In this document: piece after piece, positions 7,112 to 19,938 of the stretch | How positions within the stretch are numbered: position 1 is the stretch's first letter | How the letters are laid out: the number at the start of each line of letters is the position of its first letter | From: an uncultured Thermoplasmata archaeon | Lineage (GTDB): Archaea; Thermoplasmatota; Thermoplasmata; GCA-020350865 | Reading direction: 5' to 3' | DNA: 24,000 nucleotides | NCBI GenBank assembly: GCA_965372465.1 | Contig: CBDVCK010000006.1 | Location: forward strand, 12,258-36,257 | The notes under the pieces: model-generated | Seen by the model: only the letters and a program-made list of their open reading frames with translations | What the model was told of the DNA's origin: nothing | Database searches by the model: none | Translations under genes and position numbers: made by a program

Positions 7112-7149
7112 GGCAGAATTGAGGGGGGACCTTCGCCTTTCATTACCAT

Positions 7150-7181
7150 TGCCCCGTACGGGGCATTTTTTTCTTTTTTTT
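7150..7181. terminator. Bidirectional terminator between convergent fhs and xpd
   Basis: Perfect 16-nt palindrome tgccccgtacggggca (7150-7165) followed by T7-C-T8. The T-run overlaps the xpd stop codon. Confidence 0.55.
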
Positions 7182-15791: not shown

Positions 15792-16685
15792 CTAAATCTC
15801 CACACTTTTGGCTTCTTTCCACCTTTTCCAGGTTTTATGAGCCTCGAAGGATGAAAAGAAGAACAATGCCATTGCGATAAGCAGCTCTCTGATTTCAAAT
15901 CCAACATTGTATGTTAAGTAACTGGCTGTTTCCAAATTCACATTTATTGTTATAACAATGGAGCCCATCAAAGCCACTAATAAAAACTGAACGAAAGGAT
16001 ACCTGAAACTACTAAAGAAGTTCGAAAATCTCCCTGAAAGAATGATGAGAACAGGAATAAATAAGGCTATTACCGCAAGGGGGATAAACCAATAGAATCC
16101 CGGGTAGGAGTAAAAGACCAATGAGATGCAAAAGCAGGCAATCAGGTTGTGGTTCACAACCGGCATTTGGAGTTTTTCAAAAATCCCAGCAGCCCATCTG
16201 GATCCCAATTTGAGGAGCGGAAATATAATACCTATGGTAATGAGAAAGAGGGCCATGAGAACGTGCATCCAGGTCAGTGAATTTTCAATCCCGATGTTGT
16301 GAACCGTTGTCTCACCCTGCATGTTCACTTCTTCAAGGCCTTCAGGGGTGGAGAATCCGAACAATCGCTGTCCATAGCTTAGCTCCTCGAGAAAAAAGAA
16401 GAGAAACATACCCATAAAGAGAATGTAAAAGAGGCGCAGCCGCAATGCATGGCCCTTGACTTTTGAAGTCATGAAAAATGCAAATCCCCAAAGACAGGCA
16501 CCGAATAGGAATAACAATGCCTGCATATATTCTATGAGTGCATCCTCCTTCATGATTTCCACAGTACTTTCAAAATCCAAGAATGCATAGATGATTAGGA
16601 TTAGACCAGTTAAGAAAAATAGTAGAAGGATGAGGATACTTATTGGGCATCTTTTCTTTAACTTTTGAATCCTGCTCATCTTCAC
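15792..16685 (-). CDS. Polytopic integral membrane protein of unknown function
   Basis: 297-aa ORF consisting almost entirely of hydrophobic segments (about 8 predicted by eye). No recognisable motif. Confidence 0.7.
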   Translation of the reverse strand: MKMSRIQKLKKRCPISILILLLFFLTGLILIIYAFLDFESTVEIMKEDALIEYMQALLFLFGACLWGFAFFMTSKVKGHALRLRLFYILFMGMFLFFFLEELSYGQRLFGFSTPEGLEEVNMQGETTVHNIGIENSLTWMHVLMALFLITIGIIFPLLKLGSRWAAGIFEKLQMPVVNHNLIACFCISLVFYSYPGFYWFIPLAVIALFIPVLIILSGRFSNFFSSFRYPFVQFLLVALMGSIVITINVNLETASYLTYNVGFEIRELLIAMALFFFSSFEAHKTWKRWKEAKSVEI

Positions 16686-16735
16686 TCAACATTGAGAATA
16701 AAGATTCATGTAAATCTATTTTGCTATCCTTAAAA

Positions 16736-16761
16736 AATAGCCCCGGGTGGATTCAGGAACC
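16736..16761 (-). repeat. Orphan duplicate of the 3' end (T-loop to 3 nt past the discriminator) of the adjacent tRNA-Gln-like gene
   Basis: aatagccccgggtggattc (16736-16754) is identical to 16845-16863. Similarity continues as aggaacc versus gaacc with a 2-nt indel. Same orientation as the tRNA, ~90 bp downstream of it. Confidence 0.8.
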
Positions 16762-16784
16762 CGCTTTTTTCATAAAAAAGTGGG
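16760..16784 (-). terminator. Hairpin with U-run downstream of the glnS-proximal tRNA
   Basis: cccgctttttt-cat-aaaaaagtggg forms an 11-bp stem with one G.U pair. Either strand reads a stem containing a T6 run. Confidence 0.5.
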
Positions 16785-16846
16785 CCAAATAAAGGGCATC
16801 TGTTTTGGGAAATTGATAATATCCGATAGCCCGAAATGTGAAATAA

Positions 16847-16920
16847 TAGCCCCGGGTGGATTCGAACCACCGTCTCGGGATCCAGAATCCCGAATGATTG
16901 ACCAGCTACAATACGGGGGT
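16847..16920 (-). tRNA. tRNA-Gln(CUG)-like, divergent; possibly a pseudogene
   Basis: The minus strand folds as ACCCCCG UA UUGU AGCUGGUCAA UCAU U CGGGA UUCUGGA UCCCG AGAC GGUGG UUCGAAU CCACC CGGGGCU A (74 nt). The anticodon and T arms are perfect, with GG in the D loop and an A1-U72 pair. Defects are a C2.C71 mismatch, a D stem with only 2 Watson-Crick pairs (U10, U22), and discriminator A73. Confidence 0.6.
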
Positions 16921-17014
16921 ATTTGGCTTAGACATTACTGGTATCAAATACCCCCTATTAGTCAGAAAAGTGCCTGGAGGATGTCGAATTTTCTTTTCTT
17001 ACTACTACGGGGCT
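16915..17014 (-). promoter_or_regulatory. Two-hairpin upstream module, copy a (H2 + H1 + orphan tRNA-Gln 5' fragment)
   Basis: H2: gggggtatttg (16915-25) / caaataccccc (16945-55), perfect 11 bp with a 19-nt loop. H1: gtcagaaaag (16961-70) / cttttcttac (16993-17002), 9 of 10 bp with a 22-nt loop. The fragment tactacggggct (17003-14) reads AGCCCCGUAGUA on the minus strand. Confidence 0.6.
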
Positions 17015-17074
17015 TTTTGATTTGTAAGGTATGTGAAAATAAAGTTAAAACTTTATTATTTCAAAAGGGCGGTT

Positions 17075-18760
17075 CTATTTCTTCTGCTGCTGCTTCTGAA
17101 TCTTGGCCCAGGTGTCCCGAAGGCCTACTGTCCTATTGAAGACCAGTTTTTCTGATATCGAATCTGGGTCCACGCAGAAGTACCCCAAACGCTCGAACTG
17201 TATTCTATCAAGTGGCTTTAAATCCTTAACTGCCGGCTCCACCTTGCACCGTGAGAGCACCTCAAGAGAGTTGGGGTTTATGAAATCCTTGAAATTTGCA
17301 TCCTTCTGCCCAGACGGATCAGGTACCGTGAACAGCTTGTCGTATAGTCTTACCTCGCAATCCAGGGCATGGGCAGCTGAGACCCAGTGAAGCGTGGATT
17401 TAACCTTGCGTCCATCGGGAGCGTTGCCCCCTTTGGTTTCTGGATCCACTGTGCATCTGAGCTCGACAATCTTCCCATCCTCCTTTATGGCTTCCTTGCA
17501 GGAAACAAAATAAGCATATCTGAACCTGACCTCCCTTCCAGGAGCCAATCTGTAGAATTTCTTGGGGGGGTCCTCCATGAAATCCTCCTGCTCTATGTAG
17601 AGCTCCCTGGAAAAAGGGACCTTACGGGTTCCGGCTTTTGGGTCCTCTGGATTGTTCACTGCCTCCATATCCTCTGTTTTATCTTCAGGATAATTTTCGA
17701 TAACCACCTTCAATGGACGAAGAACTCCCATGAACCTTGGAGCCGTTTTATTAAGGTCGTCACGGACGCAGTGCTCCAAGAATTCGAAATCTACATTACT
17801 GTTGACCTTGGCCACTCCGATTCGCTTGGCAAAGGCCCGAATCGCGGAAGGTGAATAACCGCGTTTTCGTATACCACTTATAGTAGGTAGTCTTGGATCG
17901 TCCCACCCCGAAACATGGCCTCCATCCACCAACATCTTAAGCAAGCGTTTACTCATCACAGTATAGGTAATGTTCAACCTTGCAAACTCGATCTGCTGTG
18001 GATGATATACCTCTATTTGATCTAAAAACCAATCGTACAGGGGTCTATGGTTTTCAAACTCCAATGTGCAAATGGAATGGGTGATGTTCTCAATGGAATC
18101 TTCAAGTCCATGGGCCCAGTCGTACATTGGATATATACACCATTTATCACCTGTATTATGATGGCTGGCATGTAAGATCCTATAGACAATGGGGTCCCGC
18201 ATGTTCATATTGGGGTGAGTCATATCTATCTTGGCCCGTAGCACCTTTTCACCATCGCCAAATTCCCCGGCCCTCATGCGTTCGAAAAGGTCAAGATTCT
18301 CCTCAATTGAGCGGTTTCGATAGGGGCTGTTCTCTCCGGGAGTGGTCCAGGTCCCGCGTGTTTTGCTAATCTCTTCGGCTGTTGAATCGTCAACGTAAGC
18401 CTTGCCTTTTTTTGTTAATTGCACTGCATATTCGTACATCTGATCAAAATAATCTGATGCGAAAAAGAGTCTGTCTTCCCAATCGAATCCAAGCCAGCGG
18501 ACATCCTCGATAATGGATTTTACATATTCCTCCTCTTCCTTGGCAGGATTAGTATCGTCGAACCTCAAATTGCACTTGCCTTTGTATTCCTCTGCAATCC
18601 CGAAGTTCAGGCAGATGGACTTTGCATGTCCGATGTGGAGGTAGCCGTTGGGCTCAGGGGGGAATCTGGTGTGCACTCTTCCTCCGTATTTGTTGGTTCT
18701 CAGGTCTTCATTGATGATGTCGCGGATGAAATCGCGTCTTGAAGGTTCTTTTTCACTCAT
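17075..18760 (-). CDS. glnS: Glutaminyl-tRNA synthetase, bacterial type
   Basis: From the ATG at 18760 ([20 protein letters not shown]...) the 561-aa protein is colinear with E. coli GlnS as I remember it: [27 protein letters not shown] (HIGH), [26 protein letters not shown] (KMSKS), [39 protein letters not shown]. The track's 40-codon N-terminal extension (to 18880) runs into repeat A1 and is not credible. Confidence 0.92.
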
Positions 18761-18800
18761 AATGAGTCCCCAGTTGTTTAAAAGGTCTATAATTGTTTTC

Positions 18801-18812
18801 ATTATAAATATT
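18801..18812 (-). promoter_or_regulatory. TATA-box candidate for glnS
   Basis: The minus strand reads aatatttataat ~45 nt upstream of the ATG at 18760, between element A1 and the start codon. Confidence 0.4.
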
Positions 18813-18839
18813 TGGGTTAAACTCTCAAATGTAAAGAAA

Positions 18840-18905
18840 CAGCCCCGGCCACCTGAGTCTTTAAGAACCCAGCTCTTCAAAGAATAATGTGAAGTTGAAA
18901 GGGCT
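18840..18905 (-). repeat. A1: degenerate copy of the 66-nt tRNA-Gln acceptor-mimic element
   Basis: Same length and ends as A2 and A3 (...GGUGGCCGGGGCUG 3'). The 5' end has decayed to AGCCC-UUU-CAAC, which leaves an A.G mismatch in the second helix. Confidence 0.5.
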
Positions 18906-18933
18906 CTGCTGAATTATAGCATTTTAAAAAGGA

Positions 18934-18999
18934 CAGCCCCGGCCACCTGAGTGCTTAAGAACCCATTATATCTCAACATAACACGAAGGTGAAGGGGCT
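18934..18999 (-). ncRNA. A2: 66-nt tRNA-like element carrying the tRNA-Gln acceptor ends; candidate structured RNA
   Basis: Minus strand: AGCCCC UU CACC [40 nt] GGUG GCC GGGGCU G. It begins 32 nt after the tRNA-Gln(UUG) 3' end and is followed by CCUUUUUAAAA. Confidence 0.4.
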
Positions 19000-19031
19000 G
19001 CTCTGATTAAATGCTTATAAAAGTAGAAGAG

Positions 19032-19102
19032 CAGCCCCGGCCAGAATCGAACTGGCGCTAAGGGATCCAAAGTCCCTTATGCTACCGCTACACCACGGGG
19101 CT
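19032..19102 (-). tRNA. tRNA-Gln(UUG), no intron
   Basis: AGCCCCG UG GUGU AGCGGUA GCAU A AGGGA CUUUGGA UCCCU UAGC GCCAG UUCGAUU CUGGC CGGGGCU G. This is a clean cloverleaf of 71 nt with A1-U72, G10 and discriminator G73. CCA is not encoded. Confidence 0.9.
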
Positions 19103-19192
19103 TTTCTGATATATATGTTATATTCAAAGCCCCTAGCAGTAAAAAAAGTGCTCGGATATTGTTGGGTTTCCTTTTTTTACCACCACGGGGCT
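19097..19192 (-). promoter_or_regulatory. Two-hairpin upstream module, copy b
   Basis: H2: ggggcttt (19097-104) / aaagcccc (19126-33), 21-nt A/T-rich loop. H1: gtaaaaaaag (19139-48) / ctttttttac (19171-80), perfect 10 bp with a 22-nt loop. The fragment caccacggggct (19181-92) equals the first 12 nt of the tRNA. Confidence 0.6.
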
Positions 19193-19256
19193 ATGATTAT
19201 TGCGAATTACAGCGAAATAGGCCCGGGGGCTGGAGGGAAACCGATTCTCAGTATTT
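19181..19256 (-). repeat. C1: conserved element (24-nt and 35-nt cores identical to C2)
   Basis: caccacggggctatgattattgcg (19181-204) and cccgggggctggagggaaaccgattctcagtattt (19222-56) are identical to 19688-711 and 19730-64. The 17-18 nt between the two cores has diverged. Confidence 0.7.
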
Positions 19257-19358
19257 ATTAGATAGTTTACCTCCTCATGCTTAAGACCCCAGGGCTAAAT
19301 AGCACAATACTGGGGGTAAAGGACTGATGCATATTTATACTTTTTAAATTGAATTAAA

Positions 19359-19368
19359 AGCCCCGGCC
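19359..19368 (-). repeat. Isolated tRNA-Gln 3' acceptor fragment
   Basis: agccccggcc is identical to the first 10 nt (plus strand) of the A elements and both tRNA-Gln genes. It lies 19 nt before A3. Confidence 0.5.
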
Positions 19369-19386
19369 CAACGAATTTTGTTTATA

Positions 19387-19452
19387 CAGCCCCGGCCATC
19401 TGAGTGCTTAAGAATTAAGCATTTCCCAACATAACACGAAGATGCAGGGGCT
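19387..19452 (-). ncRNA. A3: 66-nt tRNA-like element carrying the tRNA-Gln acceptor ends; candidate structured RNA
   Basis: Minus strand: AGCCCC UG CAUC [40 nt] GAUG GCC GGGGCU G. Compared with A2, the second helix carries a compensatory C-G to U-A change. The inner 40 nt keeps 14-nt conserved blocks at each end (UUCGUGUUAUGUUG, UUCUUAAGCACUCA). Confidence 0.4.
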
Positions 19453-19483
19453 GTTTCGAATATTAGCTATTAAAAGATAGAAA

Positions 19484-19606
19484 CAGCCCCGGCCAGAATC
19501 GAACTGGCGCCAAGAGATCTCTCCGCTCCGCAGGAGCGTTTGCCCCTCGAATATTTCATATTCTGCGGGTCCAGAGTCTCTTATGCTACCGCTACACCAC
19601 GGGGCT
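19484..19606 (-). tRNA. tRNA-Gln(CUG) with a 52-nt intron at the canonical 37/38 position
   Basis: Exon 1 is 19606..19571 (AGCCCCGUGGUGUAGCGGUAGCAUAAGAGACUCUGG). The intron is 19570..19519. Exon 2 is 19518..19484 (AUCUCUUGGCGCCAGUUCGAUUCUGGCCGGGGCUG). The spliced product is 71 nt. It matches the UUG gene except in the anticodon arm and variable loop. CUCU/GGAG pairing places G37|A in a bulge, and the intron contains a CCGCAG/CUGCGG helix. Confidence 0.85.
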
Positions 19607-19699
19607 ATTTGAATTAGCATTGTTGGGTGCAAATAACCCCAAGCAAAAAGAAAAGTGTTGGGTTGATGCTGGTTGTTCTTTTCTTTTCACCACGGGGCT
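19601..19699 (-). promoter_or_regulatory. Two-hairpin upstream module, copy c
   Basis: H2: ggggctattt (19601-10) / aaataacccc (19631-40), 20-nt loop. Its one non-Watson-Crick position is a U.G wobble only in the minus-sense RNA. H1: aaaagaaaag (19646-55) / cttttctttt (19678-87), 22-nt loop. Fragment caccacggggct (19688-99). Confidence 0.6.
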
Positions 19700-19764
19700 A
19701 TGATTATTGCGTATTACCAGTGTAATAGACCCGGGGGCTGGAGGGAAACCGATTCTCAGTATTT
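19688..19764 (-). repeat. C2: conserved element, second copy
   Basis: See C1. The minus-sense internal hairpin GGG(C/U)CUAU-N22/23-AUAGCCCC is retained in both copies, with one internal mismatch in each. Confidence 0.7.
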
Positions 19765-19784
19765 CCAAACAGTTTGCCTCAAAG

Positions 19785-19885
19785 ACCACGGGGCTTTTCA
19801 GTTATATATGCTATATTCAAAGCCCCTAGCAGTAAAAAAAGCAACTGGAGATTACTGGAAATTCTTTTTTTACTACCACGGGGCT
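19785..19885 (-). promoter_or_regulatory. Two-hairpin upstream module, copy d; it has no tRNA body attached
   Basis: 5' fragment accacggggct (19785-95). H2: ggggcttt (19790-97) / aaagcccc (19819-26). H1: gtaaaaaaag (19832-41) / ctttttttac (19864-73). Next fragment taccacggggct (19874-85), followed by a decayed copy accaccacggaact (19889-902). Confidence 0.6.
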
Positions 19886-19938
19886 TTTACCACCACGGAA
19901 CTATTTTATAAATCGGAATGGATAAACGGTTATAAAAA

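Follow-up and report, generated by a model that had tools for sequence, protein, structure and literature searches.

The t-elements of plant mitochondria are hairpins with a tRNA-like acceptor helix which are cut by RNase P and RNase Z (PMC1920247). Here we describe hairpin elements with a similar helix in a window of 24,000 nucleotides from an uncultured Thermoplasmata archaeon (assembly GCA_965372465.1, contig CBDVCK010000006.1, positions 12,258–36,257; "the window" denotes this whole stretch, a segment of an archaeal chromosome, and positions without further designation refer to it). The elements form a conserved, clade-specific and apparently so far undescribed family, which is anchored in the acceptor sequence and brackets tRNA-Gln genes: the element HP lies upstream of these genes and the elements Y and Z, built as its mirror image, lie downstream. 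Like the t-elements, HP and Y are not tRNAs and are found in strings of co-directional genes, between an mRNA and a tRNA, and by analogy they would set the mRNA ends with the help of the tRNA-processing enzymes. Unlike the t-elements, they do not contain a mimic of the T arm, they copy the ends of one particular tRNA, they occur mirrored and in tandem and they reside on an archaeal chromosome.

Several other systems share part of these properties. REP/BIME, PATE and attC elements are likewise imperfect palindromes, in which the stems are conserved and show compensatory changes and the centers vary; they form arrays, keep their structure rather than their sequence and are found in intergenic 3′ flanks. 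In contrast to these families, HP and Y occur only at the tRNA-Gln cluster in all sequence examined (142 kb), their outer arms copy the edge of a tRNA gene, and there is no RAYT, TnpA or IntI nearby and no GTAG head. An integron attC site was rejected despite the palindrome with variable center, as the GTTRRRY core and an integrase are absent. At archaeal tRNA attachment sites of the pTN3 type (PMC8371274), direct repeats of the tRNA edge flank an insert and leave the tRNA intact as they do here, but in our elements the repeat has only 11–12 nt, the insert ∼80 nt, there is no integrase and the structure is under long-term constraint.

In the disrupted archaeal tRNAs (bulge–helix–bulge (BHB), split and permuted genes; PMC3978253) leader or trailer stems also pair a flank with a tRNA exon, and the succession of GGGGCU, a short spacer and AGCCCC is reminiscent of the junction in a permuted tRNA gene. 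In contrast to these genes, a T arm is missing from HP, the tRNA that follows needs no further part to be complete and the direct repeat does not permit a BHB motif. By hand analysis, the direct repeats force a self-complementary central helix of 4 bp, for which only CGUG (nt 6–9) fits, and the outer helix then fails. We thus rejected a BHB intron as well as a split or permuted tRNA; in one computed fold the fragment upstream is paired to the 3′ end of the tRNA, and the canonical intron of one of the tRNAs (see below) is separate from this question. Finally, attenuators and T-box leaders also consist of three or four alternately complementary segments and are associated with aminoacyl-tRNA synthetases and tRNAs. 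Unlike T-box leaders, the elements precede tRNA genes and not a synthetase open reading frame in most genomes, they have no specifier/antiterminator architecture and they have no match to a T-box in Rfam, so that this candidate was rejected, too. Many HP loops do contain a Gln codon (CAA/CAG), which is expected in an A/C-rich sequence, and the idea of a T-box-like specifier was dropped.

The genes of the locus form the string LysRS, tRNA-Gln, GlnRS, tRNA-Gln, all in the same direction. An initial annotation of the window had described four two-hairpin modules on the minus strand in front of tRNA-Gln 5′ ends, and these modules (n = 4) are indeed found in the sequence, three of them upstream of tRNA-Gln genes and the fourth, copy d, upstream of a unit which, as annotated, has no tRNA body. 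The annotation had treated the tRNA 5′ fragment at the start of each module as a mere remnant. In fact this fragment is the outer arm of a hairpin of ∼65 nt, HP, which comprises in order the sense copy of tRNA nt 1–11 or 1–12, a purine-rich arm, a G-poor loop (usually 22 nt, 18–23 overall), a U-rich arm and the hexamer GGGGNU. The two inner arms form H1, an A/U stem with an unstructured loop and a U-run inside the 3′ arm; in the four window copies the stem has 9–11 bp and the loop, as previously noted, always 22 nt. The hexamer GGGGNU is an antisense copy of tRNA nt 1–6 and also takes part in the second hairpin, H2, which is described below.

All four HP copies are on the minus strand, and the arms of H1 are given in plus-strand coordinates. 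Copy a (16950–17014, 67 bits with our HP covariance model) contains the 5′ fragment AGCCCCGUAGUA at 17003–17014, the 22-nt loop at 16971–16992 and the inverted hexamer GGGGGU at 16950–16955, and its H1 (16961–16970/16993–17002) has one mismatch. Copy b (19127–19192, 84 bits) has its 5′ fragment at 19181–19192, H1 at 19139–19148/19171–19180, the loop at 19149–19170 and the hexamer at 19128–19133. The corresponding positions are 19688–19699, 19646–19655/19678–19687, 19656–19677 and 19635–19640 (GGGGUU) for copy c (19635–19699, 78 bits), and 19875–19885, 19831–19841/19864–19874, 19842–19863 and 19821–19826 for copy d (19820–19885, 77 bits). The spacing of 51 nt between the end of the H2 arm and the next tRNA 5′ fragment is exact in all four window copies, as had been claimed, and is 48–52 nt in relatives.

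That these structures are a property of the tRNA-Gln cluster can be seen from simple counts. The tRNA 5′-end octamer (plus strand: ACGGGGCT) occurs seven times in 24 kb, always within 17007–19885, and the 3′-end octamer AGCCCCGG eight times, always within 16739–19492. A search for exact-stem hairpins (stem of at least 9 bp, loop of 15–30 nt, nested registers counted separately) yielded 19 matches compared to a mean of 1.55 in block shuffles, and 16 of the 19 are inside the tRNA-Gln cluster. Compared to shuffled sequences, the folds of the sense strand have z-scores of −2.3 to −3.6 and those of the antisense strand −0.03 to −2.2.

We compared the GlnRS neighborhoods of twelve related genomes and three metagenome contigs; individual sequences of this set are denoted by L and a number. 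HP is present in nine Thermoplasmata genomes including that of the window, with 22 sense copies altogether, which in some relatives stand in tandem as two or three copies. A metagenome scan with the HP 5′ arm gave three loci. The unit after HP always begins with AGCCCC (ACCCCC after window copy a), 25–29 nt past the element, and HPs follow the stop codons of LysRS and GlnRS at a distance of ∼55–90 nt. In L002 (4150–4249) and L003 (4155–4254), runs of 100 N cover exactly the HP/tRNA 5′ region and hide the copies there. The elements are clearly maintained in evolution. In the genomes carrying HP the four-fold degenerate sites of GlnRS are only 27–34% identical, that is, saturated, and thus the elements cannot be a by-product of a recent tandem duplication, a possibility that the initial annotation had left standing.

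In the alignment of the 22 copies, nt 1–8 (AGCCCCGU) and 10–11 are invariant or nearly so and position 9 is G or A. The loops, which had been described as largely unrelated, have a common consensus, poor in G and rich in A and C, of the type AAAACCCAACA..AUC..AAC, with 10% G on the tRNA-sense strand (all copies pooled). The extended H1 stem is 92.8% paired, and sliding the partner reduces the pairing to at most 69%. As had been proposed for both stems, H1 and H2 covary. In H1 there are 27 double-sided changes compared to 8.9 ± 2.2 in shuffles (0 of 500 shuffles); compensatory changes span 13–15 bp, with four pairs changing for example between G–C, A–U and U–A. Moreover, the outer part of H1 contains ∼35 G·U or U·G pairs, which would be A·C on the opposite strand and therefore favor the tRNA-sense strand. 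The covariance model points in the same direction, as it scores the sense copies with 56–85 bits and their antisense with 17–37 bits; the earlier suggestion of an RNA-level structure is strengthened by both observations. Beyond these copies the model matched nothing in the 24-kb window and 118 kb of relatives except Z and two decayed copies. The latter follow directly after the GlnRS stop codon (L128, 2159–2225, minus strand; L002, 6759–6822), and the class-2 tRNA-Gln downstream has been lost there.

The hexamer GGGGNU has two possible partners. Pairing with the 5′ copy of its own element closes the ∼65-nt HP, whereas pairing with the leader and the first 6 nt of the unit that follows, extended by 2–5 flanking bp, yields H2. 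On the minus strand of the window, H2 of copy a (16915–16955; 11 bp, loop of 19 nt) is formed by GGGGGUAUUUG (16945–16955) and CAAAU plus ACCCCC (16915–16925), H2 of copy b (19097–19133; 8 bp, loop 20 nt) by GGGGCUUU and AAAGCCCC including tRNA nt 1–6, and H2 of copy c (19601–19640; 11 bp, loop 18 nt) by GGGGUUAUUUG and CAAAUAGCCCC; copy d has 8 bp and a loop of 21 nt. The stem length of 8–11 bp and the single U·G pair of copy c are therefore as annotated, and the range of the loops has to be corrected from 19–21 to 18–21 nt due to copy c.

The closed HP was absent from the initial annotation, as were the elements Y and Z and the generality of the junction hairpin. For copies b and c, the fold of lowest energy is a single long hairpin in which GGGGCU is joined to the 5′ fragment upstream of it; in copy d the closed HP and the combination of H1 and H2 are nearly isoenergetic; and only copy a, with GGGGGU in front of a tRNA that begins with ACCCCC, clearly prefers H2. 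From these computed folds we conclude that three segments compete, namely P1 (the sense copy), P2 (the antisense hexamer) and P3 (the tRNA 5′ end). The closure of HP by AGCCCC and GGGGNU is fully paired in 10 of the 22 copies and contains one mismatch in a further 11. Copy a is also the single case behind the earlier claim that H2 follows its own tRNA; in two relatives the same GGGGGU is uncompensated.

The junction pairing is general. It is found at every GGGGNU...AGCCCC boundary in the clade, and this includes the boundaries between a tRNA 3′ end and the element downstream. The flanking bases of H2 are complementary despite differing spacer types (AUUUG/CAAAU, UU/AA, UC/GA, GC/GC), and the same holds for the flanks between tRNA and downstream element (GUUUC/GAAAC, GCUCU/AGAGC, GUUAC/GUAAC, ACUCU/AGAGU). 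Beyond the hexamers the pairing extends by 3.45 bp on average compared to 0.64 ± 0.14 bp in shuffled spacers. For 28 distinct junctions, pairing in the 11-bp helix amounts to 83%, with 38 double-sided changes (14.9 ± 3.1 in shuffles, 0 of 500); the first flanking pair is formed in all 28, using AU, UA, GC and GU. Upstream of the class-2 tRNA-Gln of L001 and L004, an arm AAUACGGAxCU is complementary to the first 11 nt of that tRNA (AGCUCCGUAUU). The upstream arm thus tracks the sequence of the tRNA, which favors pairing between nucleic acids over a fixed site for a protein, and a binding site for a dimeric protein or recombinase, one of the options put forward initially, becomes the least likely of them.

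Downstream of the tRNA genes the same plan is repeated in mirror image. Y is a second conserved hairpin family of ∼67 nt, located ∼31 nt after each class-1 tRNA-Gln, with 19 full copies, a compensatory stem closed by CAGCCCC/GGGGCUG and a conserved loop UUAUG...CUUAAG. On the minus strand of the window, Y3 (19387–19453) reads CAGCCCC, stem, UUAUG..CUUAAG loop, stem and GGCCGGGGCUG; Y2 lies at 18934–19000 and the diverged Y1 at 18840–18905. Between the end of Y1 and the first in-frame ATG of GlnRS there are 73 nt, and two Y copies of the window are found just upstream of the start codon of this gene. The tRNA 3′ acceptor strand and the trailer form an 11-bp hairpin, which in the window is built from GGGGCUGCUCU and AGAGCAGCCCC at 18994–19038 and from GGGGCUGUUUC and GAAACAGCCCC at 19447–19490 (both minus strand). 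Z follows the class-2 tRNAs. Read in antisense, Y and Z have the plan of HP, that is, a copy of the tRNA-gene edge (10–12 nt, CAGCCCCGGCC), a hairpin, GGGGCU and a junction hairpin into the gene. Hence, from either side the layout is gene-edge copy, hairpin, inverted hexamer, junction hairpin and tRNA. The HP model recognizes antisense Z weakly (17.6 bits).

On the tRNA-sense strand C is rare in the pooled Y loops (10%), and reverse-complemented HP loops are more similar to Y loops than shuffled controls are (11.5 compared to 10.6 ± 0.23). The loop of window HP b and the inverted loop of the second Y of L001 are identical at 18 of 19 positions. The orientation of the Y loop is constant in 18 of 19 copies; in L002 (4409–4472) the entire Y is inverted relative to every other genome, which implies recombination between the palindromic arms. 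The arrays comprise 1–3 HP and 1–4 Y, and in seven relatives the Y array adjoins the 3′ end of a convergent glyoxalase-like gene. Y has no match in Rfam. We also considered kissing between the loops of HP and Y and rejected it, as there is no cognate-specific complementarity (means of −8.3 kcal/mol for cognate and −8.15 kcal/mol for non-cognate pairs); only the two HP–Y pairs of the window stand out, with z of about −3.

The family is restricted to one subclade. In the more distant relatives L005–L007 (80–81% GlnRS identity) elements of the HP or Y type are absent; there the tRNA-Gln genes flank GlnRS with short plain spacers and have ordinary TATA boxes 36–47 nt upstream of the tRNA. L007 has even kept the full order LysRS, tRNA, GlnRS, tRNA without the elements. 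Thus, the elements are an elaboration of a single subclade.

As to their function, we favor the explanation that the elements are boundary and processing hairpins at the RNA level which separate the tRNA-Gln genes from the neighboring synthetase mRNAs, and we would give it a probability of roughly one in three (0.35). That HP is asymmetric between the strands and constantly located 3′ of protein genes suggests that the role of this element is strand specific and probably exerted in RNA. The elements would be transcribed as the 3′ flank of the adjacent protein gene and would fold into long hairpins capped by a tRNA-Gln-like acceptor helix. These hairpins could mark or stabilize the 3′ end of the mRNA, with the U-run in H1 as a candidate archaeal termination site, and could offer tRNA-like cleavage contexts to RNase P and tRNase Z, by which the tRNA-Gln would be cleanly freed from the synthetase mRNAs. 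The choice between the closed HP and H2 would set whether the 5′ acceptor strand of the tRNA is free. The elements probably arose when the edges of tRNA genes were copied by fold-back or duplication, and their copy number may then have been altered by recombination between the direct repeats of 11–12 nt. The explanation entails transcription through the elements, cleavage, termination and an effect on expression, all of which we infer.

A number of observations weigh against this explanation. The U-rich arm of H1 lies 38–50 nt upstream of the tRNA +1 position, close to where the relatives without HP have their TATA box. If this arm were the TATA box, the transcripts would start past GGGGNU and H2 would be impossible in RNA. 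Neither HP nor Y contains a mimic of the T arm (of the GGUUCGAAUCC type) and a tRNA model gives them no score, which makes recognition by RNase P and tRNase Z uncertain. The U-run is uninterrupted (T7 in DNA) in copies b and d, and in copies a and c as well as in about half of the relatives it reads TTTTCTT or TTTTCCT; an interrupted run such as UUUUCUU in half of the copies would be a weak archaeal terminator. In addition, pair 2 of the hexamer closure is a purine–purine mismatch in 11 of the 22 copies, and the wobble pairs of Y favor neither strand consistently. Finally, the mirrored layout, the inverted Y of L002, truncated restarts and the variation in copy number have the look of DNA dynamics.

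This last point leads to the strongest alternative, which we consider nearly as probable as the favored explanation: the elements would be palindromic repeats at the DNA level (similar to REP/BIME, MITE/PATE or attC) which target, or are templated by, the sequence AGCCCCG, placed at either edge of the tRNA gene by the symmetry of the acceptor stem. Recombination or template switching mediated by the hairpins would let them spread and alter their copy number, and their structure would be kept for propagation. The mirrored layout fits this alternative well, as the long direct repeat of the gene edge is distal and the inverted hexamer proximal to the gene, and each element remakes its own target AGCCCCG, which would explain the tandem arrays. 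Truncated restarts are found just upstream of HPs; in the window the degenerate restart AGUUCCGUGGUGGUAAA is located at 19886–19902 (minus strand) in front of copy d. The inversion of an entire Y, the near identity between an HP loop and an inverted Y loop, the resemblance of antisense Z to HP and the existence of sister lineages with the same synteny and without the family are all easily accommodated. The pair GGGGGU/ACCCCC of copy a, which would harm the tRNA, also suits quasipalindrome correction better than selection. On the contrary, no transposase or recombinase was found in the window or the loci examined, and the covariance-model search through 24 kb and 118 kb revealed no copy away from the tRNA-Gln cluster. 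Copies from the same genome are diverged (67–84%) instead of nearly identical, and the synteny of their positions is kept between genomes whose neutral sites are saturated. The fixed orientation of the Y loop and the G-poor sense loops of HP argue against free flipping as well.

The three competing segments might also be taken, in line with the first option of the initial annotation, as a leader attenuator or folding switch, in which GGGGNU sequesters the tRNA 5′ strand unless the sense copy captures GGGGNU, and which would thereby tune the maturation of tRNA-Gln. Two mutually exclusive states of near-equal energy, the covariation of H2 and the independent antisense copy of 11–12 nt upstream of the class-2 tRNA in L001 and L004 are what such a switch would require. 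We regard it as improbable, since transcription would have to start upstream of HP, no ligand or sensor is evident, and the mirrored Y and Z, the HPs in front of units which are not tRNAs (copy d and the second copy of L001) and the HP relics without tRNA are left unexplained. With a similarly low probability, the gene-edge-templated hairpins might be tRNA-Gln-specific decoys or switches of the acceptor helix, or a self-propagating element that homes to the acceptor-stem sequence, in archaea which acquired a bacterial-type GlnRS and kept GatDE; such elements could for example select the tRNA-Gln precursors that undergo maturation, or titrate an enzyme specific for tRNA-Gln.

A further proposal would dispense with RNA structure altogether. 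The U-rich arm of H1 would then be the TATA box of the tRNA and, as an oligo-T terminator, the end of the upstream gene, and the palindromes would be incidental or bound by a dimeric factor. The position of the T-run agrees with that of the TATA boxes in the relatives devoid of HP, the run is T7 in copies b and d, and there is a T-run on each strand. When we scanned a genome collection for the inner A-run/T-run pattern (A-run, N20–24, T-run), it proved too generic, and the matches listed were almost all from bacterial genomes, in which the pattern is common and may be a bidirectional terminator. Nevertheless, we consider this proposal quite doubtful. TTTTCTT and TTTTCCT, as present in half of the copies, are poor TATA boxes and poor terminators, and a scan for intrinsic terminators found no terminator-type hairpin at H1. 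The invariant 11-nt copy of the tRNA, the compensatory changes in H1 (over 13–15 bp) and H2 and the arm which tracks the tRNA would all remain without explanation.

That the elements are attachment scars of integrative elements which once used tRNA-Gln is very unlikely, even though direct repeats of tRNA edges are a signature of integration, there are archaeal integrases which target tRNA genes in their 5′ half (PMC8371274) and longer 3′-edge repeats lie downstream of the class-2 tRNA, because no integrase or cargo was found, the supposed integrated elements would have only ∼80 nt with repeats of 11–12 nt, the covarying structure is conserved across saturated divergence and four IMG/VR scans (HP arm, Y core, H2 and tRNA) gave only two chance matches. 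For the same reasons an integrated element was rejected in the window itself, where the neighboring unannotated open reading frames have no family match, and so was a viral or plasmid origin, as the IMG/VR scans returned either nothing or chance matches in unrelated sequence.

If the elements are indeed RNA boundary and processing hairpins, they would be the first archaeal counterpart of the tRNA-like punctuation of organelles and would illustrate the insulation of tRNA genes that lie amid synthetase genes. If their action is at the DNA level, they would represent a palindromic repeat family which homes to, or is templated by, the tRNA acceptor sequence, and thereby a new way for the flanks of tRNA genes to evolve. 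With either reading there is a clean structure, supported by covariation and limited to a clade with a horizontally acquired GlnRS beside its tRNA-Gln genes. Due to this restriction the co-evolution of synthetase and tRNA becomes directly testable.

GlnRS of this archaeon (17075–18766, minus strand; first in-frame ATG at 18764–18766) is of the bacterial/eukaryotic type and sandwiched by tRNA-Gln genes. Its nearest homologues, 80–89% identical, are from Thermoplasmata and Methanomassiliicoccales metagenome-assembled genomes, some of which are complete. Contigs with GlnRS are numerous, the protein search having yielded 8000 proteins at E ≤ 1e-50. GatD is encoded ∼1.2 kb downstream in one relative (L133, 6358–7650), so that the direct and the transamidation route to Gln-tRNA may coexist. 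There are two classes of tRNA-Gln, which differ in their D-loops. Three tRNA-Gln genes are present on the minus strand of the window: tRNA searches identified the class-2 tRNA-Gln(CUG) at 16847–16920, downstream of copy a, and a tRNA-Gln(UUG) at 19032–19102, downstream of copy b. The third, a tRNA-Gln(CUG) at 19484–19606 downstream of copy c, contains an intron of ∼51 nt after position 37 and was found only with the Rfam tRNA model (48.7 bits) and missed by ARAGORN. Intron-containing copies are apparently also present in L008 and L133; the counterpart at the same place in L001 is intron-less. Apart from these three tRNAs, Rfam had no match in the window, with the best other hits at E ≥ 0.68 and far below the gathering threshold.

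The class-2 tRNA-Gln has ACCCCC at its 5′ end and GGGGCU at its 3′ end, and hence a C2·C71 mismatch in its own acceptor stem, whereas the hexamer GGGGGU upstream is complementary to the altered 5′ end. This tRNA may be impaired, or the inverted repeat may have served as the template for its change. A direct repeat of its 3′ edge is found 109 nt downstream of the gene's own edge (16732–16754 and 16841–16863, minus strand; 23 nt, 96% identical). Such repeats, also present in L001 (7055–7075) and in L003 (about 7128–7150), have 17–35 nt overall and lie 110–130 nt downstream of the gene, and the insert between the repeats is partly conserved, beginning alike in L001 and L003 (CGAGCAGG). Judged from the sequence, the repeat pair could be the remnant of an attachment site pair or a small RNA gene.

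Copy d is followed by unit X (19700–19795, minus strand), a further hairpin-type unit beginning with AGCCCCGUGGUC, of which a second partial copy is found at 19193–19260 (minus strand). It consists of the first 11 nt of the tRNA and another hairpin and is conserved between the window and L129 (190–290), where the hairpin has an 11-bp stem and a G/U-rich loop of 22 nt. C/D-box or H/ACA guide RNAs were considered for X and Y and rejected, as there are no consistent boxes and the best Rfam match is a C/D snoRNA with E = 0.68. The other genes of the window include those of a class I LysRS, an archaeal phosphopantothenate synthetase, a PurP-type protein (DUF1246/1297), an XPD helicase and FTHFS. 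Directly downstream of the tRNA-Gln cluster, in the window as well as in several relatives carrying the elements, lies a conserved open reading frame of 297 aa (15792–16685, minus strand) without family match, whose hydrophobic product has the look of a multi-pass membrane protein.

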